From the IMG/VR virus record IMGVR_UViG_3300033068_001610, positions 64,001-87,224 of that record: DNA of 23,224 bases; one strand, written 5' to 3'. Shown here one piece after another: positions 3,454-21,569 of this stretch. Below the pieces are notes generated by a model. The model worked only from the letters and a program-made list of their open reading frames with translations. It had not been told where the DNA came from and did no database searches. The translations under genes and the position numbers were made by a program. The DNA is from a virus. Lineage: Duplodnaviria > Heunggongvirae > Uroviricota > Caudoviricetes. How positions within the stretch are numbered: position 1 is the stretch's first letter; every line of letters begins with the position of its first letter.

Positions 3454-6400
3454 ATGAGTTTACATTGTGGTCCATCTTCTTGCTCCATTTTATTAAGTGC
3501 ACAATGTGTATTTTACGAGGGAGCAAATCTTATATATACAGGAATTAATACCAATGATTCTGTTCAAACAGCCATAGAAAAAATAGAGGCTGCTTTTAAT
3601 ATGGGATATGCTGGAAGTTCTGGTACATCAGGAACTAGTGGTGTAAATGGAAGTTCTGGTACATCAGGAACTAGTGGTGTAAATGGAAGTTCTGGTAGTG
3701 CAGGTACATCTGGTACAGATGGAACTACAGGAGTTTCTGGGTCTAGTGGTACTTCAGGAATAGATGGGGCAACAGGATTGTCAGGCACAAGTGGTTCTTC
3801 AGGAACTAGTGCAATTGATGGAACATCAGGATCATCTGGAACATCAGGTATTAATGGTAGTATGGGGTCTAGTGGTTCTGCAGGTTCTTCTGGAACTAGT
3901 GGAACATCTGCAATAGATGGTACATCTGGTACCACAGGAAGTTCAGGAACAAGTGGAATTGATGGTTCTACAGGATCTTCTGGCTCAGCAGGTTCTAGTG
4001 GTACAAGTGGAACGTCAGGTAGTACTGGAACATCTGGAAGTAGTGGAACCTCTGGTACATCAGCAACTGCTGGTACTTCAGGAACCACTGGAACTTCTGG
4101 TACGTCAGGTATTAGTGGATCTTCTGGAACCACAGGTACTAGTGGTACCACTGGTACAAGTGGAACAACAGGAACTAGTGGAACTTCTGGTATCAATGGA
4201 ACGTCTGGCTCTAGTGGAACCACTGGGACATCAGGAACCACTGGTACAAGTGGAACTTCTGGAATATCAGGGACAAGTGGCACAACAGGCACAAGTGGAA
4301 CCACAGGTACGTCTGGTACATCAGGGTTAACTGGTTCTTCAGGTACGTCTGGAACAACTGGTACTTCTGGAACTAGTGCTATAAATGGAACAGCAGGTAC
4401 TTCAGGTACTTCAGGGATAAATGGCACTTCTGGTACTAGTGGAACTACTGGCACCTCTGGGACTACAGGAACCAGTGGTAGCTCAGGAATAAATGGGACT
4501 AGTGGTACTACAGGTACGTCTGGTACATCAGGAAATAATGGTACTTCTGGAACAACAGGAACCTCTGGTATTAATGGTACCTCTGGAATAAATGGAACTA
4601 GTGGCACAACTGGTACTAGTGGTAGTTCAGGGACTACAGGAACATCAGGTACAACTGGTACGAGTGGTGTTTCAGGAACTTCTGGAACTACTGGAACTTC
4701 TGGGACTTCTGGAATTAGTGGTACGTCAGGCAGTAGTGGGACAACTGGTACTTCTGGTACTAGTGGATTAAATGGTACGTCAGGTATAAATGGTACATCA
4801 GGATCTTCTGGTACAACTGGTACTAGTGGAACATCTGGAAATAGTGGTACTTCTGGGGTGAGTGGTACTAGTGGAACAACAGGTACCAGTGGTACAACAG
4901 GAACTTCTGGAACATCTGGAATAAATGGAACATCTGGAACAACTGGTACTTCTGGTACATCTGGATTGAGTGGAACAAGTGGATTAACAGGAACTTCTGG
5001 TACTACTGGAACAAGTGGAACTACTGGTACATCAGGAACTTCTGGTTTAAATGGTACAAGTGGTATTAATGGAACTTCAGGTGTTAGTGGGACTAGTGGT
5101 TCAAGTGGGACTAGTGGTCTTACTGGTACATCTGGTGTGTCTGGAACTGCAGGTACATCAGGTACCTCAGGACTTAATGGTACATCTGGTTTATCAGGCA
5201 CAAGTGGTACAACTGGAACTTCTGGTACAAGTGGTACTAGTGGGGCTAATGGCACTAATGGTGTCAATGGCACTAATGGAACTACTGGTACTTCAGGTAG
5301 TAGTGGTGTTAGTGGAACCTCAGGCACAACAGGAACTAGTGGGACAAGTGGTAATACTGGGACTAGTGGAGTTAATGGTACATCAGGCACAACAGGCACT
5401 TCAGGTACTACAGGTACTAGTGGAACAAGAGGTACATCAGGAACTTCAGGAGTTAGTGGAACTTCAGGAATTAATGGAACTTCAGGTACTACAGGGACTT
5501 CAGGTACAAGTGGTGTTAGTGGTACTTCAGGGTTAACAGGTACATCAGGAACTAGTGGAACATCAGGTGTTAATGGTGGAACAGGTACTAGTGGAACAAG
5601 TGGTACAAGTGGAAATTCAGGAACAAGTGGAGTAAATGGTACTTCAGGAACCACAGGTACAAGTGGTACAAGTGGAGTTAATGGAGGTGCTGGTACTAGT
5701 GGTACATCAGGAACAAGTGGTGCAAATGGAACTTCAGGTACAACAGGCACAAGTGGTACTACAGGTACTTCTGGTACTAGAGGAACAAGTGGAACCAGTG
5801 GTTTAAATGGTACTTCTGGGGTAAATGGTACAAGTGGTGTAAGTGGGACAAGTGGTTCTAGTGGAACCTCTGGATTAAATGGCACCAGTGGTACAACTGG
5901 TACTTCTGGCACGTCAGGTACTAGAGGAACTAGTGGTATTAATGGTACATCAGGAGTGAGTGGAACTTCAGGGACTACTGGAACTTCTGGAACAAGTGGT
6001 GTGTCAGGTACATCTGGTGTTAATGGTACCAGTGGAGTAAATGGGGGTAATGGAACATCTGGTACTAGTGGTACATCAGGAGCTAATGGAGCTTCTGGAA
6101 CTTCTGGAACAAGTGGTACTTCAGGTACATCTGTAACTGTATCAGGAACAACTAACACTATAACTAAATTTACTTCTGCTACAACTATAGGCAATAGTTT
6201 GATTTATGATAATGGGACTTTCATAGGTATAGGAACAACAACTGATAATGGCAGTAAATTAAGAGTAGAAGGAGATACATATATTAGTGGAAAAGTTTCA
6301 TTAGGTCAAAGTACATACCATAAACCAGTCACTACTCAATGTGCAGGAGAAATAGTATATTATGGAACTGGTACAACAGTTGCTGGTAAATTATATTACT

Positions 6401-6717
6401 TAAGTACAGGTCTTGTATGGACATTAGCAGATTCAGATGCAGCAGCTTCTTCATCAGGAATGTTAGGTATTGCAATAGGAACAAACCCAGCTACAAATGG
6501 AATGTTAGTTAGAGGTTCTGCTAGATTTGATGCATTAACTCCTTATACAGCTATGACTGCTGGACAAATTCTTTATGTATCTACTACAGCAGGAGATTTT
6601 ACTGCAACTGCACCAACAGGAACAGGTAAAGTAGTTAGAGTAATAGGTTATTGTGTTGATGATACAAATAATACATTATATTTTTGTCCTGATAATACTT
6701 GGATAGAATTAACTTAA
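3454..6717 (+). CDS. Gly-Thr-Ser triplet-repeat fibre-like virion protein (1087 aa)
   Basis: Short Cys-containing N-terminus ([17 protein letters not shown]), ~843 aa G-X-X repeat, then a tail-fibre-like GIGTT segment and a C-terminal globular domain ([16 protein letters not shown]...GMLVRG...VRVIGYC). Confidence 0.75.
3604..6132 (+). repeat. Coding G-X-X triplet repeat, 281 triplets (9-nt period), synonymously diverged
   Basis: [15 protein letters not shown] triplets. Register is kept over 2529 nt, with only a few G-to-A substitutions (AID, ATA, AIN) and no Pro. Confidence 0.95.
3613..3696 (+). repeat. Exact 36-nt tandem duplication (2 copies plus 12 nt)
   Basis: ggaagttctggtacatcaggaactagtggtgtaaat at 3613-3648 and 3649-3684, followed by ggaagttctggt. 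Confidence 0.9.
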
Positions 6718-8001: not shown

Positions 8002-8657
8002 TGATTATCAATGTAGATAATTACTTCAGTATAATAATGCAGAAATGATTCATTCCACACATCCCATTTAATATCACAACCATCAAAAGAATGTATTTGA
8101 AAATTGGGAAATATTCTTAAATAAACATCCCTGAATACTCTGAATTTTTCTATAGCTTCTGGTGTACCAAGATGCCATTCTCCTGCTATATATTTAACAT
8201 TGGCTTTTATCCAGGTTAAGTTTTTTATAGTGAAAATATCATATTCTCCCCCCTCACAATCTGTCTTAAGGAAGTCAATTGTTTTGATGTTGTAATCTTC
8301 CACAACTTTCATAAAAGTGGTGGAATACATACTATCTTCTTCAACAAAAGGAGTATCAAAAATAAACTCTCCCACTACGTTGGAAATCCCTTTATTTATA
8401 GGGGTAACATTTCCATGTCTAGTATTAAGAACAAGTGTTTTAAATTCTTCAAAGCTGGGCTCAAATGCAAATACATTTGCAGGATTTTTATTTAGTATTG
8501 AATAAGTAAAGGGACCTAAACTAGCCCCTATATCAAATACTACATCTCCTTCTTTTACATCATGAAATTTAGTGTAAATTTTATCCACAAAAATTTCTTT
8601 TTCTATAGTTTCCCTGAATCCTGGGTAGCATTCAGGAGTCCATATAAATTTTTTCAT
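7998..8657 (-). CDS. FkbM family SAM-dependent methyltransferase
   Basis: VVFDIGASLGPF (motif I), VFAFEPS, IDFLKTDCEGGEYDI and GEWH are typical FkbM/Methyltransf_21 motifs. ATGA overlap with the upstream GT gene. Confidence 0.85.
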   Translation of the reverse strand: MKKFIWTPECYPGFRETIEKEIFVDKIYTKFHDVKEGDVVFDIGASLGPFTYSILNKNPANVFAFEPSFEEFKTLVLNTRHGNVTPINKGISNVVGEFIFDTPFVEEDSMYSTTFMKVVEDYNIKTIDFLKTDCEGGEYDIFTIKNLTWIKANVKYIAGEWHLGTPEAIEKFRVFRDVYLRIFPNFQIHSFDGCDIKWDVWNESFLHYYTEVIIYIDNH

Positions 8658-11600
8658 TTTATAATTTTATTAATCTCATTAATAACCATGGTAGATGTGA
8701 TGGCTTTTTGACATTCAAATTGCTTATCAGTTCCTTTGTTGATTGGGCACCAGTCCCAATCTCCTTTATCAAACTTGAAGTTTGGATTATTCCAACAGCT
8801 ATTACATACTGATTTTACTATTGGTCTATGACATTTAAATTCATGTTCTTCATTGGTAAAATTAGAAATCATAATCACTTCTTTACCTAAAGCCCAAGCT
8901 AGCCAAGTTAAACCTGAAGAAAGACCTATGAAAAATTCACTGTTGAAAATTTCATACATAGTGTTTTCCATAGACTTGTCCTGCAAAGACACACAATTTT
9001 CAAAAAGATTGTCTTCCAAAGAAGTATTAACAACAGTATATCCTTTTTTATAAAGATATGTAATAACCTCTTGCCAATTTTCTCTAGTCCAAAACTTACA
9101 CCCTGCAGTACTGTTAGTTGCTATGGTTACATACTTTTTAGTTGTACCCTGTCTTGTCTTTACAATAATAGAAGGTTTAATTTCTACATACTCGAGACCA
9201 AGGATATTGGTAGCAGTTTGCTGAAGAGGAATAGTGTTAGGCAGCACAGGCTCTTTATCAGAATTGTAAAACCAACCTATCTTATACATTGCATAAATAT
9301 TTTGAACTGTAGAGCCTGGATTGACAAATTCTACATCAGTGTATACCTCTTGAAAAAGAGAATTATGAAATGTAGATACAATTACTTTGCAGTTATGTTT
9401 AAGTCTAAATTCTTCTACATAAGGAATCCAGGCAATAGTATCTCCAAGAGACTTACTATCAAAAGAAATATACACTCTACTATTCAAATAGTCTAAGTTA
9501 TTAACATAAACTAATTTATCATCTTTGTGCACTTTAATAGTCCATTTAGTATAATATTCTCTATTACATCTCACCCAATGATTAACTGGTATTTTGTCTG
9601 AGTGTACAAGTGTCTCTCCATCCCAAAATTCAATTGTAAATAAACTTTTTGAATGTCCTGTAACTTCTACAAATGGTTGACCAACAAAATTACAATTAAT
9701 TTTATAAGAAGGAGAATTTTTTCTAAATTCTGGAATTTTATTTTTCATAATGGTTTTATATAGTTTAATGTGATTATTTGCAAAATCTTCTGAAGTATTA
9801 TCTTCAGGTATTTCATAAGGAATTTTTTGCATAATAGTTTTTAACTTATTACTTACAAGATGTAGTGGATCTAAACTATGTGTATACTTATCATAAATTC
9901 CACAATATTGAGGAAGTCTTCTTGCAAGTATTGGAAGACCATAACTTATAGCTTCCTTTAGAACAAGTGGATTACACTCCCAAGTAGAATTAAACATGAA
10001 TATATCTGCAGCTTGCATGAATAAATGTATATCTTTTCGTTCTCCCCACACTTTTACATTACTAGGAAGATTTTTCATTAAAGGTTCCCAATAGTCTTGA
10101 AAATTACCAGCTTGATTACCTATAAAATGAAACATCACTTTAGGATGGTTTCTTGCAATTTCAATACCTTCTGCTTGATTTTTACCAGGAGTCCATAAGC
10201 CAACATTAATGACTTGTTTAACATATGGTTCCATTCCTAGATATAATCTAGATTGTTCTTTCAATACATTAGATATTTCTTTTTTGTCTATAGGAAACTC
10301 AATAACTTTTTTATATCCTTCATTATTACCAAATGTATTTAAATGATAGGGAGTGCAGAAAGCATAAGCATCTGGAACATAAATTTTATCTTTTGGTTTA
10401 AAAGAAATATCATGACAAGTTTCCACTATACGATATGATCTGTTATCATCATATAATTTTTCTATCATATTGAGATTTAATCTTTCAGACATTTCGTCAA
10501 TATGAACAATATTAGGTTGAATATCATTAATAATATTAATCAACTCTTGCTTTTGTTGTAATGTATAAAAGTTTTTTTGTCCTATTAATTTGATTATTGC
10601 ATTTCTTTGAACTACAAAATCTAAACTAACACAATCATATTCTACTACAAAAATTTCACATTCTCCTGTAGCTAATAAAGCCTCTATTCTTTTGAGAAGA
10701 AATGCAGGCATTCCCCCTGTAGACAAATGTGGAGCTAGAAATAGTATTTTTATTTTATTTATTGGTTTTTGTTTATCAATTTCTCTCCTCATTTCTTGCA
10801 TTTTTGGATAAGATTTTTCTCCATGAAAAAATAGAATATTTTCTTTATTTCCTATTCTTAACCATGCTTTATCTTCTATAGGTTCTCCTTTGTAAATAGA
10901 TTTTACAAGCTCTATTCCTCCATTCACATATACATAAGGAAGCCCTTTTTGTATGTTATATTTCCAAAGAAGAACATTAAGAATTGTTTCTTCATTATAA
11001 GGAGCATAATAAGGAGTGTTATGTTTAACTTCAGGATGATTACACATCCATATCCATTCATTCAAGAAAGCAATATTCCATTTAGAAGCTACAAAATATC
11101 CAGATTGTCTATATCGCTGTCTTACAAATTGATTAACATTAAATAATTTACATGCTGGAGCTTCTAAACTTTTGTGATATTCTGTTTCATCCATAACACC
11201 ACCTCTGTCATTATATTGTAGCCAATCATACATCCCTTCTACGAAGTAAGGATGTGACACTTTGTCAGGAAGCATTTCAAATATTTGATCTGCATTATGT
11301 GTAGCTACAGAATCAGAGTCTATATAAGCAACTACATTAGCATATTTTAATAGACAATCTTTAATTATCTCAGGACGTTGAATAAGAATGTTATATGTAT
11401 CACTATTAAATCTATCTATATATTTGCTTTGTTTTTTATCAACAATATTACAAGGCCAATAAATAGTAGTGGCTCCTTCAATAGTGTTGTTAAAATTTAA
11501 TAGATAAACAAATATAGGAATATCACTTACTGCTCTGATGGAGTCTACACATCCTTTCACAGTTTTAAAATAAGATGCTGTTGCATATAAAACATATGCT

Positions 11601-12115
11601 TTTGGCACTTTTATATCTTTAGACATATAATAACCATACCATTCATTAGAATATAAACATTCTAAAGATGGATATCTCTCTAATACAATCTCATGTGTAA
11701 GATCTGGTTGGTGATGAGTCTCATGTATGTTTCCTTCATATTCTCCCTGTTCCATCATGTAAGGAACAGCTACTAAATATTCAATTCCTTTCTGTTGAAG
11801 TTTGTTTATAAATTTAGTAGCTTTATCAGTAGGAATGTGTTCAAGTACATCTCCTAAAATAATTAAATCATAATTATCTATATTAAAATCAAGAACATCT
11901 CCTAAATAAACATTGTCATATTTATCTCTAAGATTATATTGTTCAATATATGGTCTCCATATCTCTATAGCATCCATTCTATACCCAATATCATGGAGAA
12001 GATTATAGTAAGTTCCTTCTCCAGGGCCTACATCTAGTATCCTTTTTGTGTTTGGAATATTGTTTATAAAATATTCTCTAATTTCTTGTTTAAATACTGT
12101 ATAACTAGTTGGCAT
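8654..12115 (-). CDS. Four-domain protein: class I methyltransferase + GT-A-type glycosyltransferase + GT4 + BAHT (TibC/AAH-like) O-glycosyltransferase
   Basis: RILDVGPGEG (SAM binding); YIDSDS (DxD); ILFLAPHLSTGG and DIFMFNSTWECNPLVLKEAISYGLP (GT4); SKSLGDTIAWIPYVEEFRLKHNC and CNSCWN...DWDWCP...FECQKAIT (TibC-type four-Cys motif). Start placed at ATG 12115 because the TTG at 12136 lies inside a promoter motif. Confidence 0.85.
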   Translation of the reverse strand: MPTSYTVFKQEIREYFINNIPNTKRILDVGPGEGTYYNLLHDIGYRMDAIEIWRPYIEQYNLRDKYDNVYLGDVLDFNIDNYDLIILGDVLEHIPTDKATKFINKLQQKGIEYLVAVPYMMEQGEYEGNIHETHHQPDLTHEIVLERYPSLECLYSNEWYGYYMSKDIKVPKAYVLYATASYFKTVKGCVDSIRAVSDIPIFVYLLNFNNTIEGATTIYWPCNIVDKKQSKYIDRFNSDTYNILIQRPEIIKDCLLKYANVVAYIDSDSVATHNADQIFEMLPDKVSHPYFVEGMYDWLQYNDRGGVMDETEYHKSLEAPACKLFNVNQFVRQRYRQSGYFVASKWNIAFLNEWIWMCNHPEVKHNTPYYAPYNEETILNVLLWKYNIQKGLPYVYVNGGIELVKSIYKGEPIEDKAWLRIGNKENILFFHGEKSYPKMQEMRREIDKQKPINKIKILFLAPHLSTGGMPAFLLKRIEALLATGECEIFVVEYDCVSLDFVVQRNAIIKLIGQKNFYTLQQKQELINIINDIQPNIVHIDEMSERLNLNMIEKLYDDNRSYRIVETCHDISFKPKDKIYVPDAYAFCTPYHLNTFGNNEGYKKVIEFPIDKKEISNVLKEQSRLYLGMEPYVKQVINVGLWTPGKNQAEGIEIARNHPKVMFHFIGNQAGNFQDYWEPLMKNLPSNVKVWGERKDIHLFMQAADIFMFNSTWECNPLVLKEAISYGLPILARRLPQYCGIYDKYTHSLDPLHLVSNKLKTIMQKIPYEIPEDNTSEDFANNHIKLYKTIMKNKIPEFRKNSPSYKINCNFVGQPFVEVTGHSKSLFTIEFWDGETLVHSDKIPVNHWVRCNREYYTKWTIKVHKDDKLVYVNNLDYLNSRVYISFDSKSLGDTIAWIPYVEEFRLKHNCKVIVSTFHNSLFQEVYTDVEFVNPGSTVQNIYAMYKIGWFYNSDKEPVLPNTIPLQQTATNILGLEYVEIKPSIIVKTRQGTTKKYVTIATNSTAGCKFWTRENWQEVITYLYKKGYTVVNTSLEDNLFENCVSLQDKSMENTMYEIFNSEFFIGLSSGLTWLAWALGKEVIMISNFTNEEHEFKCHRPIVKSVCNSCWNNPNFKFDKGDWDWCPINKGTDKQFECQKAITSTMVINEINKIIK

Positions 12116-12130
12116 ATATTTAGTTTTAGA

Positions 12131-12141
12131 ATACAAATTTA
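12131..12141 (-). promoter_or_regulatory. Putative -7 promoter element TAAATTTGTAT for the GT/MT cassette
   Basis: Identical 11-mer to those at 3426 and 15042; TAAATTTG ends 18 nt upstream of ATG 12115. Confidence 0.55.
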
Positions 12142-19037: not shown

Positions 19038-19785
19038 CTATAAAGTTTTTTAATAATTGTACATAATCATGATTCCAATGAGGATTTAATTGTATTTCTC
19101 CTATTGGAATTTTTCCTTGTTTTCTAAGAAGTTCTATATGTAAAGAATGTCTTTCAATAACATTAGGTCTTCCTTCAATATCATGTCCCATTCCTGATTG
19201 ATGATAAAGATCTGCAGATGGCATAGCCCATCTATACATCCAACTAGCTTCTTCTTTAGGAGGACTAGCAAAAGTTCTTCCTCCATATTTAGCAAGACGT
19301 TCTATGAAAGTCATATCATACCCTGCATTTTCTATAGGATGATATCCAATAGCTTCCCAAGCTGCTTTTCTGAATACAATGCCAGAATTACCAATCCAAG
19401 TAATATCAGTAATATTAGGTTCATTATAAAATATACCATTTTGCCAATGGAGGATATTAGTTTCATCTGTAAAGTATTTAGCAACATTTTTTAAATGATT
19501 AGGTAAAGCAATATCGTCATCATCCCATTGACAAATAATATCACCTTGACAAACACTAGTGGCATAAGTTTCTTTATCCCCTATAGTTTTAAATGTTTGG
19601 TCAAAATTAATGATTGTAACTCTTGGGTCATCATATTTAAGCTTCTGTAAGGCATAATCATTAATAATGATGAGTTCACACCTATCTTTAGGATAATCTT
19701 GCCTGAGGAAGCTTTCAATAGTCTCCTCAAGCAAGTTTACTCTACCATAGGTTATACATTTACAACTTATGAATGGCAATTCCAT
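19024..19785 (-). CDS. GT2 family glycosyltransferase
   Basis: ISCKCITYGR..LLEETIESFLRQDY, LIIIND, ICQWDDDD. Confidence 0.85.
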   Translation of the reverse strand: MELPFISCKCITYGRVNLLEETIESFLRQDYPKDRCELIIINDYALQKLKYDDPRVTIINFDQTFKTIGDKETYATSVCQGDIICQWDDDDIALPNHLKNVAKYFTDETNILHWQNGIFYNEPNITDITWIGNSGIVFRKAAWEAIGYHPIENAGYDMTFIERLAKYGGRTFASPPKEEASWMYRWAMPSADLYHQSGMGHDIEGRPNVIERHSLHIELLRKQGKIPIGEIQLNPHWNHDYVQLLKNFIDGRK

Positions 19786-20078
19786 TACCAGATATGAATT
19801 ATGTCAAATGGTGATACCATTAATACATCTTTTTCTGAAGAAAGAGGAATCAAAAGTCCTTGTGATAATTTACTAGGATCTACTAATACTTCATCTCCTT
19901 CTTTGATATCACTTACAAGATCTCCTACAGCATACACTACAAGATGTGACATTTTTTTAAGAAGTTCTTTATTTAAAGCATCTTTTGTATTTTCATCTAC
20001 AATAAGTTTACTTTCTTCTTTTTTTGGTAATGAGATATAAACTCTATTACCTCTTAGTTTTTTAAATTCTTTAGCCAT
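19785..20078 (-). CDS. GroES-like co-chaperonin
   Basis: KLRGNRVYI...SKLIVD (mobile-loop region)...VYAVGDLVSDIKEGDEVLV...DII. Confidence 0.65.
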   Translation of the reverse strand: MAKEFKKLRGNRVYISLPKKEESKLIVDENTKDALNKELLKKMSHLVVYAVGDLVSDIKEGDEVLVDPSKLSQGLLIPLSSEKDVLMVSPFDIIHIW

Positions 20079-20081
20079 TTT

Positions 20082-20339
20082 TTAAATTGTTAGTGCTTTC
20101 ACTGCCCACATACAAGCTTCTTCATAAGCTGTTTGAGCCAAAGCGATTAATCTTAATTTTTCTCCACTTGTAACTTGAAGTTGTTCAGCTGATTTATCAT
20201 ATGTTTTTGATACTTCATCATTTTTATGAGATTGTAACATATTAATTAAAACAGCTGTTTTAATTTTAATTTCTCCCACATGTTCTGAGTTTGATACATT
20301 AAAATCAACTCTTACTCTTTCTTCCCCTAAAGTTGCCAT
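20082..20339 (-). CDS. Acb2/Tad1-like helical hairpin protein (candidate immune-signal sponge)
   Basis: LGEERVRVDFN...RLIALAQTAYEEACMWAVKALT parallels the Tad1 segment RENACALTHVEEALMW as I recall it. Confidence 0.55.
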   Translation of the reverse strand: MATLGEERVRVDFNVSNSEHVGEIKIKTAVLINMLQSHKNDEVSKTYDKSAEQLQVTSGEKLRLIALAQTAYEEACMWAVKALTI

Positions 20340-20341
20340 AA

Positions 20342-20641
20342 TTAAATAGATAAAAGGTTAAAAAATCTTTCTTTATCTTCAGGATTTAGAGTGATTTCTG
20401 ATTGAACCACTGCTTGTTCCTTTTTACCATGAATAACTCTATTTGTTCTAACGTTAACTGAATCTGGTTGTGTAACCATTTCTTCATGAAAATCATCTAA
20501 AATGATGATAAGATCTCCATTAGGCAGTTCCATGCTGCGAATAACCATGTCAATGTTGAATGAAGCTCTTGATGTTTTTGTTTCTGGAGCTTCTGCTGTT
20601 CCCACTTGGTGGGTAATTGTGTATAAAAATTGGTTTTTCAT
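20342..20641 (-). CDS. Hypothetical protein (99 aa)
   Basis: Operonic packing, 2 nt from the next gene. Confidence 0.7.
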   Translation of the reverse strand: MKNQFLYTITHQVGTAEAPETKTSRASFNIDMVIRSMELPNGDLIIILDDFHEEMVTQPDSVNVRTNRVIHGKKEQAVVQSEITLNPEDKERFFNLLSI

Positions 20642-20645
20642 AATA

Positions 20646-20834
20646 TTATAAATTAGTTGCTGTTGTTAATGTATATGCATTTGCATAATTTGTTGAATTT
20701 CCATTTGCATTATTTGCAAGGTTTTGATATTGAGGACCTCCAAAACTTCCTCCAATTATTTGATGCCCTTCTGATAATGTGCTCCTTTTAATTTTTCCTG
20801 AGGGAACACTACTAAAATTAAAAGAAGGTGTTAA
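20646..20834 (-). CDS. Start-less 62-codon -1 frame extension of ORF 20831-21031
   Basis: Open -1 frame (LTPSFNF...TATNL*) with no ATG/GTG/TTG; ends 4 nt before ATG 20641. Confidence 0.6.
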   Translation of the reverse strand, partial: LTPSFNFSSVPSGKIKRSTLSEGHQIIGGSFGGPQYQNLANNANGNSTNYANAYTLTTATNL

Positions 20835-20840
20835 AAATTT
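20782..20840 (-). promoter_or_regulatory. Putative -1 programmed ribosomal frameshift signal
   Basis: Slippery heptamer A AAT TTT (20840-20834), then TAA, a 6-nt spacer and a 14-bp stem CTTCTTTTAATTTT/AAAATTAAAAGGAG (one G-U) with an 18-nt loop. Confidence 0.6.
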
Positions 20841-21031
20841 CTTACAAGAATTTGAACATTATCAGGATCTTTTGCATATTCTTCAGGAATTTCTCTTGTA
20901 ATTTTAAATATAAGATCTCTTTCTGATTTAGCCATTGCTGACGTTGGTTCAATAATAATTTTGGAATCTACATAGTTTCCTTCTTTGTCATAATCATGCA
21001 CTACTACTGCATACTGAAATAATTGTTTCAT
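20831..21031 (-). CDS. Small hypothetical protein (66 aa) ending VRNF*
   Basis: LFQYAVVVH...IIIEP...EIPEEY...VQILVRNF; last codons form the slippery site. Confidence 0.75.
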   Translation of the reverse strand: MKQLFQYAVVVHDYDKEGNYVDSKIIIEPTSAMAKSERDLIFKITREIPEEYAKDPDNVQILVRNF

Positions 21032-21034
21032 AAT

Positions 21035-21175
21035 CTATTGGTTTTTAAATTTATTATATTTACTGTGACCTATTTTAGATGTTGTTTTAATAACATCTTT
21101 TTTATTATTTTTAATCTGTTGTTCTATCACTGAGTTTAATCTATCAAAAACAGCTTTGTAAAAAGCTGGATACAT
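21035..21175 (-). CDS. Hypothetical protein (46 aa)
   Basis: ATG 21175 lies 1 nt after the HNH stop, so it is more likely than the overlapping start at 21229. Confidence 0.5.
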   Translation of the reverse strand: MYPAFYKAVFDRLNSVIEQQIKNNKKDVIKTTSKIGHSKYNKFKNQ

Positions 21176-21176
21176 A

Positions 21177-21569
21177 TTAAATATTATACTTTGTCTTAAG
21201 ATATTCTCTTCTTTTGTTGATTTCATCATAACGATACATGTTATTTTCTACATTTGTATGTTCATCAAGGGTCAAAAGTATAATATTTTCTTCATCTAGA
21301 CAAGCATCAGGATATTTTTCTTTAGGAAGTATATGATGAAAGTAGATACTCAGTGCTTCAGACCCTAAGTAAGTGCCACTTATCTCTGAATAATGTCTTT
21401 TTTTCCTCCAAAGTGACCTGAACAGGGCCACTTGCATGATATATGCTTCATTAACTATCTTTTCAGAGCTTAATGTTGGTTTTATGCTACATTGAGCCAT
21501 TTTTTTACGTGGTTTATGCAGAAAGCAATAGTCACTTTCTGCATTTTTTCCACATGTTTTACATTTCAT
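21177..21569 (-). CDS. HNH-type endonuclease with N-terminal CxxC...CxxH zinc finger
   Basis: MKCKTC...YCFLH and FHHILPKEKYP...EENIILLTLDEH. Confidence 0.7.
   Translation of the reverse strand: MKCKTCGKNAESDYCFLHKPRKKMAQCSIKPTLSSEKIVNEAYIMQVALFRSLWRKKRHYSEISGTYLGSEALSIYFHHILPKEKYPDACLDEENIILLTLDEHTNVENNMYRYDEINKRREYLKTKYNI

Follow-up and report, generated by a model that had tools for sequence, protein, structure and literature searches.

Conserved programmed frameshifts in phages are, to our knowledge, almost exclusively those of tail chaperones, together with a few capsid and tail genes. The lambda-like tail assembly chaperone G/GT is reportedly made by a -1 frameshift of this kind (attributed to Xu, Hendrix and Duda, 2004). 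G/GT resembles what is inferred for the gene family described here in that a heptamer-driven -1 shift is found across diverse tailed phages despite divergence of the proteins, and in that the shift fixes the ratio of two products with a common N-terminus. It differs in gene family, position and size; the present family has no tape-measure neighbor, and its shift site abuts the stop codon.

The closest architectures, judged by analogy, appear to be the 3′-terminal frameshifts of the capsid genes of phages T7 and A2. The major head protein of Lactobacillus phage A2 is said to acquire a C-terminal extension through a 3′-terminal -1 frameshift (cited in PMC10885494). Gene 10A/10B of T7 (G_GUU_UUC), as is inferred for the genes described here, slips at its very end and adds a C-terminal extension to a phage protein (PMC5009743). 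In T7 and A2, as predicted for our family, most of the protein is a short form, and a smaller part is a long form with the same N-terminal domain. However, the T7 and A2 products are capsid proteins encoded in structural modules, whereas the family consists of proteins of 65–75 aa encoded among replication, recombination and nucleotide-metabolism genes, and the family tail is not a folded domain but a linker, predicted to be disordered, with a short motif at its end.

Two further systems can be compared. NS1′ of West Nile and Japanese encephalitis viruses is produced at C_CCU_UUU (U_CCU_UUU in some), heptamers also found in one branch of the family (proteins ending R-P-F), with a 3′ structure at a short spacer (PMC5009743). 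That system works on eukaryotic ribosomes, in RNA viruses and in unrelated proteins, and the likeness is in the signal only. The dnaX gene of E. coli (tau/gamma) likewise combines a -1 shift and a 3′ stem-loop in a replication-module gene and gives isoforms with and without a C-terminal part that binds a partner. Unlike the family, dnaX has a shifted product that is the shorter one, a different heptamer (A_AAA_AAG) and an SD-like enhancer upstream of it, and there is no relation between the proteins. A partner-binding role for the tail of the phage family can only be guessed. No description of the gene family, of its frameshift, or of frameshifting in crAss-like phages was found in the searchable literature.

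Organization of the locus

The window, that is, the whole 23,224-nt stretch of DNA that was analyzed, carries on its - strand an ORF for a protein of 66 aa (20831..21031, stop included), supported by the ORF listing, an AlphaFold2 model and clusters of homologues. The 3′ end of this ORF reads GTA AGA AAT TTT TAA and contains the slippery heptamer A_AAU_UUU (20834..20840, - strand), on which the Asn codon AAU in the P site can re-pair to AAA and the Phe codon UUU in the A site to UUU. The 0-frame stop TAA (20831..20833, - strand) is flush with the heptamer, and its U and the base after it are also part of the first -1 codon, UUA (Leu). Read after a slip, the -1 frame (TTT TTA ACA CCT...) translates as F-LTPSFNFSSVPSGK...NAYTLTTATNL. 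The extension itself comprises 62 codons (LTPSFNFSS...NAYTLTTATNL; 20649..20834, - strand), has a high content of Thr, Ser, Asn and Gly, and should be disordered according to prediction. Its last residues, N-A-Y-T-L-T-T-A-T-N-L (20649..20681, - strand), form a C-terminal peptide that the tail alignment identifies as conserved, and the -1-frame stop TAA follows at 20646..20648 (- strand). The long isoform would have 128 aa (the 66 aa plus the 62-codon tail), and its predicted tryptic junction peptide is NFLTPSFNFSSVPSGK.

Since the -1 stop lies only 4 nt (TATT) from the next gene's ATG at 20641, the extension occupies the whole 189-nt gap between the two genes. Upstream of the slip the -1 frame is open for just 8 codons, and no ATG, GTG or TTG occurs anywhere in the -1 ORF. 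The original prediction had been made from this DNA alone, and the elements on which it was built (the ORF, the heptamer, the stop, a -1 frame with no start, the 4-nt spacing and a hairpin) were all found where it had placed them. It had also called the extension rich in Gly, Asn, Ser and Thr, a description that fits the tails of the window's clade as a whole, which contain 16% Thr, 15% Ser, 14% Asn and 9% Gly.

Distribution of the gene family

Close homologues of the 66-aa protein fall into 79 clusters of 65–70 aa, and the ending R-N-F is present in 78 of the 79. A profile search of 1.84 billion representatives (clusters at 50% identity) extended the family to at least 343 clusters at E ≤ 0.001. 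Among the best 150 of the 343 representatives, 128 are Phe-terminal and 100 terminate in R-P-F. The R-N-F clade of the window is thus a branch of a far larger superfamily, in which R-P-F is the commoner form. Relatives ending in R-P-F and a stop, which the original prediction had mentioned, do exist, with C_CCU_UUU or C_CCU_UUC as the heptamer. One member (P0072) ends in K-P-F. The superfamily spans phages of 28–69% G+C, including one phage of 735 kb.

Among 50,697 phage records searched at the nucleotide and protein levels there was no cultured relative; the sole matches were LR756501 and LR756503, which represent an unannotated 735-kb metagenomic phage with a family member. Contig scans of GTDB species genomes likewise did not find a relative. 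The family member in LR756501 (L163; LR756501.1 259365-262565, approximately locus positions 1489-2270) ends CGC CCT TTT TAA, and its tail, of 188 codons, includes collagen-like Gly-x-Ser/Thr repeats and an IGLGTTNP motif. Several other members (P0084, P0092, P0093, P0095 and L044 2294-2707) have been called with 30–60 additional N-terminal residues.

Loci from the R-N-F clade (8 + 52 + 30) and a further 70 from the R-P-F branch were collected. Removal of duplicates left 114 distinct loci, which form the basis of the heptamer and frame tallies given below.

Conservation of the slippery site

A heptamer in which YYY is UUU lies directly 5′ of the stop codon in 101 of the 114 distinct loci. AAAUUUU is found at 41 of these, CCCUUUU at 31, CCCUUUC at 16 and other heptamers at 13, and C_CCU_UUY is present in place of A_AAU_UUU at 47 loci. 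Perfect XXXYYYZ heptamers account for 90 of the 101, and the remaining 11 are of the U_CC, G_CC, A_CC, G_UC (e.g. G_UCU_UUU), C_UC and G_GU types, including one locus (L035) with a T7-like G_GUU_UUU. The stop is flush with the heptamer in every one of the 101 loci (TAG in 57, TAA in 36 and TGA in 8); a locus outside this tally, L097, has one additional codon between the two. Heptamers of the form H_HH.U_UU.Y, which include A_AAU_UUU, C_CCU_UUU and C_CCU_UUC, are among the most efficient in E. coli (Sharma et al., PMC4066793), and G_GUU_UUU and U_CCU_UUU match working types known from gene 10 of T7 and from viruses of the Japanese encephalitis group (PMC5009743). The efficiency of the slip in the phage's own host cannot be inferred from the E. 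coli data.

The same tally bears on which tRNAs would slip. At a “shifty stop”, the -1 step is made by the Phe-tRNA alone, which moves in the P site from UUU or UUC by one base, so as to include the U before it, with a slow stop codon in the A site, and the identity of XXX is irrelevant. Strict invariance across the 101 loci is limited to N-U-UU-Y and a U-initial stop after it, the stop is flush with the shift site at all of them, and the 11 imperfect heptamers, which give poor P-site re-pairing in the tandem model, fit a single-tRNA slip at least as well. With these 11 heptamers and an invariant core of U-UUY plus stop, slippage of a lone Phe-tRNA is still possible. It is nevertheless opposed by the 90 perfect heptamers and by the codons that supply the first X. 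Arg is encoded in this genome by AGA in 77% of cases and by CGC in 0.7%. In R-P-F loci of 28–38% G+C, CGC precedes CCU in 15 of 17, yielding C_CCU_UUY, and the rare codon CGA retains the A of the heptamer in four Asn-type loci. A single-tRNA slip needs none of these rare codons, and their retention favors slippage by two tRNAs. A structure 5–6 nt past the site is the classic spacing for tandem slippage, and this is the spacing at which the stem of the family is found. In addition, U_CC and G_GU, two of the imperfect types, are known tandem sites (PMC5009743). Slippage by the Phe-tRNA alone is in our judgment unlikely, and we continue with tandem slippage as the preferred reading.

Conservation of the open -1 frame

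The -1 frame is complete, meaning that it does not run off the contig, in 98 loci, and in all 98 it is open for 44–154 codons (median 65). The median open length is 8 codons in the +1 frame and 12 codons in the 0 frame past the stop. Stops are frequent below 40% G+C; among the 58 loci in this range, the shortest -1 frame has 45 codons and the longest +1 frame has 16. The first residue of the tail is Leu in 99 of 101 loci. The original prediction had proposed that homologues be examined for a conserved heptamer plus stop and for an open -1 frame, and both expectations are met by the loci tallied here. It had also conceded that a single-base assembly error or an indel pseudogene would undo it. 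These can be excluded, since about 100 independent assemblies have the same arrangement.

Most tails contain no start codon, and where one is present its position is not conserved. This bears on the proposal that the 62-codon frame is a separate small gene, translated from a non-standard start or by re-initiation and never fused to the 66-aa domain. The sequence AAAAGGAG in the 3′ arm of the stem does resemble a ribosome-binding site, and gene callers sometimes report the tail as an ORF if it chances to contain a GTG or TTG. Yet the window and most loci have no ATG, GTG or TTG at all, the heptamer is invariably the point at which the frame opens, and the conserved L-x-x-P that comes right after the slip would be lost from a separately initiated product. 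Natural in-frame fusions of the two parts also exist, and the heptamer and the tail are lost together (see below). We consider a separate gene extremely improbable.

The composition of the site bears equally on the RNA polymerase, which could stutter on the T run and add one U to part of the transcripts, giving the fused protein without any ribosomal slip. The run at the window's site consists of five T, one added U would give an identical protein, and crAss-like phages use unusual polymerases. However, seventeen loci with CCCTTTC or GCCTTTC, that is, three T followed by C, keep an open -1 frame. Stems that aid polymerase slippage sit 5′ of the run, and the combination of XXXYYYZ, a 5–6-nt spacer and a 3′ stem is one of ribosomal signals. 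Known bacterial transcriptional slippage involves runs of 7–9 or more (PMC5009743), and with five T, far under this length, the run-length criterion is not met. A polymerase origin of the shift is very improbable, and ribosomal slippage at the heptamer remains the preferred reading.

The downstream stem-loop

A stem-loop that is likely to act as the frameshift stimulator lies at 20782..20827 on the - strand, where 14 contiguous pairs (20827-20814 with 20795-20782) follow the heptamer after a 6-nt spacer. The stem contains 3 G-C, 1 G-U and 10 A-U pairs and has a folding energy of -11.1 kcal/mol; a competing fold of 20828-20767 reaches -14.3 kcal/mol. Taken alone, this AU-rich hairpin is not exceptional (z of -0.8 to -1.2 against shuffles). 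The single sequence thus leaves the matter undecided, and it is the relatives that decide. When the best hairpin beginning 3–9 nt past the heptamer was scored, 33 non-redundant Asn-type loci had a mean hairpin z of -2.65 against dinucleotide shuffles, with 8% of the shuffles equally stable. The energy z-scores of the R-P-F loci are weaker (mean of -1.2, median -0.6), especially at high G+C.

The arms of the stem vary across loci yet stay complementary, as in ACUCCAUC/GGUGGAGU, GCUCCAUUA/UAAUGGAGC and GUCCCAA/UUGGGAC, with further complementary pairs in GUUCCUGAC/GUCAGGAAC and UGCUCCUGCAAGG/CUUUGCAGGAGCG. This was quantified by a swap test, in which the 13 nt beginning 3 nt past the heptamer were paired with the downstream sequence of the same locus or with that of other members. 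Asn-type loci paired with their own downstream sequence at -12.95 kcal/mol and with those of others at -7.95 kcal/mol. The corresponding values were -12.8 and -6.9 kcal/mol for R-P-F loci below 45% G+C, and -15.5 and -11.3 kcal/mol for R-P-F loci at or above 45% G+C. None of 5000 permutations reached the observed mean in any of the three groups. As far as sequence comparison can tell, the downstream stem is kept by covariation, and the compensatory changes in the stem that the original prediction had asked of homologues are present. A consensus structure for 33 downstream regions was not obtained with MAFFT and RNAalifold, because loop lengths differ between loci. Neither an Rfam family nor a terminator was found in the gap.

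The tail as a protein

In an alignment of 39 tails one Leu is invariant, Pro occupies position 3 or 4, and neither the length nor the sequence of the linker is fixed. Tails from the clade of the window have a shared C-terminal Y-[ST]-L-T-x-A, and the end motif of the family is S/T-N-x-Y-[ST]-L-T-x-A-[LST]-N, in which Tyr and Leu are invariant and Ala is present in at least 90% (alignment A3). In the R-P-F branch the end motif is looser, [ST]-Y-x-[AST]-[AS]-x-[LIV], and is often preceded by a second element, Y/F-T-x-[ST]. The end motif occurs a single time in the 87-kb genome. Purifying selection on the tail is weak except at its ends. The pN/pS over 16 close pairs is 0.66, a value consistent with a flexible linker between constrained ends. 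Because the gene 3′ of the tail varies among loci, the tail can be said to travel with the 66-aa gene.

A second recurring motif, G-N-[VI]-G-I-G-T-[ST]-x-P, is found within otherwise unalignable linkers at seven loci (L006, L014, L032, L071, L081, L082 and L143). We take it to resemble motifs of phage fiber proteins. No GNVGIGT-like motif occurs in the window's tail or elsewhere in this genome.

The weak selection on the linker could suggest that the arrangement is kept for some other reason, such as an RNA element in the gap, and that the shifted product is a rare and functionless by-product. A tail pN/pS of only 0.66, a linker free in length and sequence, and a conserved stem-loop are all compatible with such an element. 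An RNA element, however, would not hold one frame open for 44–154 codons at about 30% G+C, where the other frames close at a median of 7–9 codons, and it would give no reason for a peptide motif to persist at the end of that frame across 28–69% G+C. The gap also has no Rfam match and no terminator. We find this explanation hard to credit, and prefer to read the tail as a protein extension reached by frameshifting.

Losses of the arrangement and in-frame fusions point in the same direction as the alignments. In one clade the genes end K-K-F (AAA AAA TTC TAA); these lack both the slippery site and the tail, and ~15 nt or less separate them from the next gene. At locus L128 (CGA CCC TTT TGA) the heptamer and the tail have both been lost. 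Conversely, some members carry the tail in frame. The long form of P0089 reads ...VKEMFPSFHYSS...GTYTLTSAITN, that of P0090 reads ...ILIKKF-LSNTL...SNSYTLTSNV..., and P0102, P0099, P0106, P0132, P0152 and P0210 are further in-frame carriers. Each of these in-frame forms comes from one contig, and so any one of them, taken singly, could reflect a homopolymer or assembly indel; the junction of P0089 is different, and an error of this kind is unlikely there. Longer fused proteins were not found by a word-index search, and a few were found by exhaustive profile search. In an AlphaFold2 model of P0089 the in-frame tail has a pLDDT of ~50, and the model gives no evidence of docking of the end motif on the domain.

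In the window the tail is followed by a gene for a protein of 99 aa (20342-20641, - strand), which is a conserved neighbor (L048-L060 and L085-L090). Its homologue in the K-K-F clade starts ~15 nt or less from the stop of the family gene, in the +1 or the -1 frame depending on the locus.

Domain fold and gene neighborhood

AlphaFold2, run with a 30-sequence alignment, models the 66-aa domain with a pLDDT of 90.9 as a small alpha/beta fold (strand-strand-helix-helix-strand). The domain had no match in Pfam or PHROGs and none in Foldseek searches of PDB and BFVD at E ≤ 0.001. Its best VIA-align score, a Z of 6.4 to the eL20 N-domain and PurS folds, is of a size that common arrangements also give. 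A protein atlas searched with the domain returned unnamed viral clusters only, and searched with the tail it returned nothing. The gene family is therefore new to Pfam and PHROGs. YkzG/RNA polymerase epsilon, phi29 p6, eL20, PurS and a vertex chain of phicrAss001 (Z of 3.9) were weak look-alikes. They were not used, because all fall within the range of common small alpha/beta arrangements.

The neighbors of the gene in the window are RecA, dUTPase, HNH-like, Acb2-like and GroES-like genes and glycosyltransferases, and PhoH-, MazG-, clamp-loader-, RuvC- and GroEL-like genes are found near related loci. The setting is thus a replication, recombination and nucleotide-metabolism module and not a structural one, in agreement with the original prediction, which had placed the signal in a non-tail block. 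A tail assembly chaperone of the G/GT kind was considered and rejected on the basis of the replication-type neighbors and the lack of a PHROG or Pfam match.

Several other features of the neighborhood may be mentioned. Two genes downstream of the frameshift gene, a protein of 85 aa (20082-20339, - strand) matches the Pfam Acb2/Tad1 hairpin domain (E of 1.8e-9) and phrog_717, and is a candidate anti-CBASS or anti-Thoeris nucleotide sponge. A 97-aa protein (19785-20078, - strand) has a GroES-like sequence pattern with no Pfam match above threshold, and similar small GroES-like genes lie 3′ of the family gene in L023, L081, L129 and L139. A terminator-like hairpin with a T run (CAGCTTTTTACAAAGCTG TTTTT; 21151-21168, - strand) is located just past the stop (21177) of a 130-aa HNH-like gene. 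This hairpin sits inside the start of a listed 64-aa ORF (21035-21229), which may in fact begin only at the ATG at 21175. Farther away, a collagen-repeat fiber protein (3454-6717, + strand; Pfam Collagen, E of 4e-115) adjoins a protein of 1160 aa with methyltransferase and glycosyltransferase domains (8654-12136, - strand). Conceivably, this glycosyltransferase protein might also act on the predicted frameshift tail, which is rich in Ser and Thr.

Proposed mechanism

Three sequence marks of programmed -1 ribosomal frameshifting, namely a slippery heptamer, a conserved -1 ORF with no start, and a covarying 3′ structure at 5–9 nt, are all present. We propose that a programmed -1 frameshift takes place at the last two sense codons of this small phage gene, a reading to which we assign a probability of roughly 0.88 and for which there is no experimental evidence. 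It was the claim at the center of the original prediction, and the heptamer, the open frame and the covarying stem of the relatives lend it comparative support. Most ribosomes would read through ...Arg-Asn-Phe to the TAA and release the 66-aa globular protein. A fraction would slip one base back on A_AAU_UUU, the Asn-tRNA moving onto AAA and the Phe-tRNA onto UUU, while the stem-loop 5–6 nt downstream holds the ribosome. The slipped ribosomes would then decode UUA (Leu) and 61 more codons, giving a 128-aa isoform in which the same domain is followed by a flexible linker rich in Thr, Ser, Asn and Gly and by the C-terminal Y-T-L-T-x-A peptide.

What was observed, in nucleotide and protein sequences throughout, is a conserved signal, a -1 frame that is open and constrained as protein, a stem that covaries, and long forms that occur naturally in frame. 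The slippage itself is inferred from these features, as is the participation of two tRNAs rather than a lone Phe-tRNA, and there are no data on the shifted product or its rate. The mechanism would be a canonical, textbook -1 ribosomal frameshift; it is the gene family that is new.

What the tail does is a matter of guesswork. It might tether the domain to a replication or recombination partner, with the ratio of isoforms fixed by the slip rate. A wider proposal is that the frameshift is obligatory superfamily-wide, that the docking site of the C-terminal peptide is a replication or recombination partner or, in trans, the family's own domain, and that the slip rate fixes a tethered:untethered (capping) ratio. 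We offer this tentatively, as a possibility that is open to considerable doubt.

Implications

The proposed frameshift is located in a tiny, unannotated gene of a replication module, and the same letters are kept across very different uncultured phages. All gene callers miss it, so that databases list the 66-aa half and leave the gap empty, and its recognition would correct the annotation of hundreds of phage genomes. If the frameshift is obligatory throughout the superfamily, no other conserved recoding signal of tailed phages, the one in the tail-chaperone gene excepted, would be as widespread. The A_AAU_UUU, C_CCU_UUU and C_CCU_UUC sites with their covarying stems constitute a natural series for studies of bacterial frameshifting, Bacteroidota included, and a two-isoform protein with a conserved C-terminal peptide would provide a tractable entry to the biology of uncultured phages.
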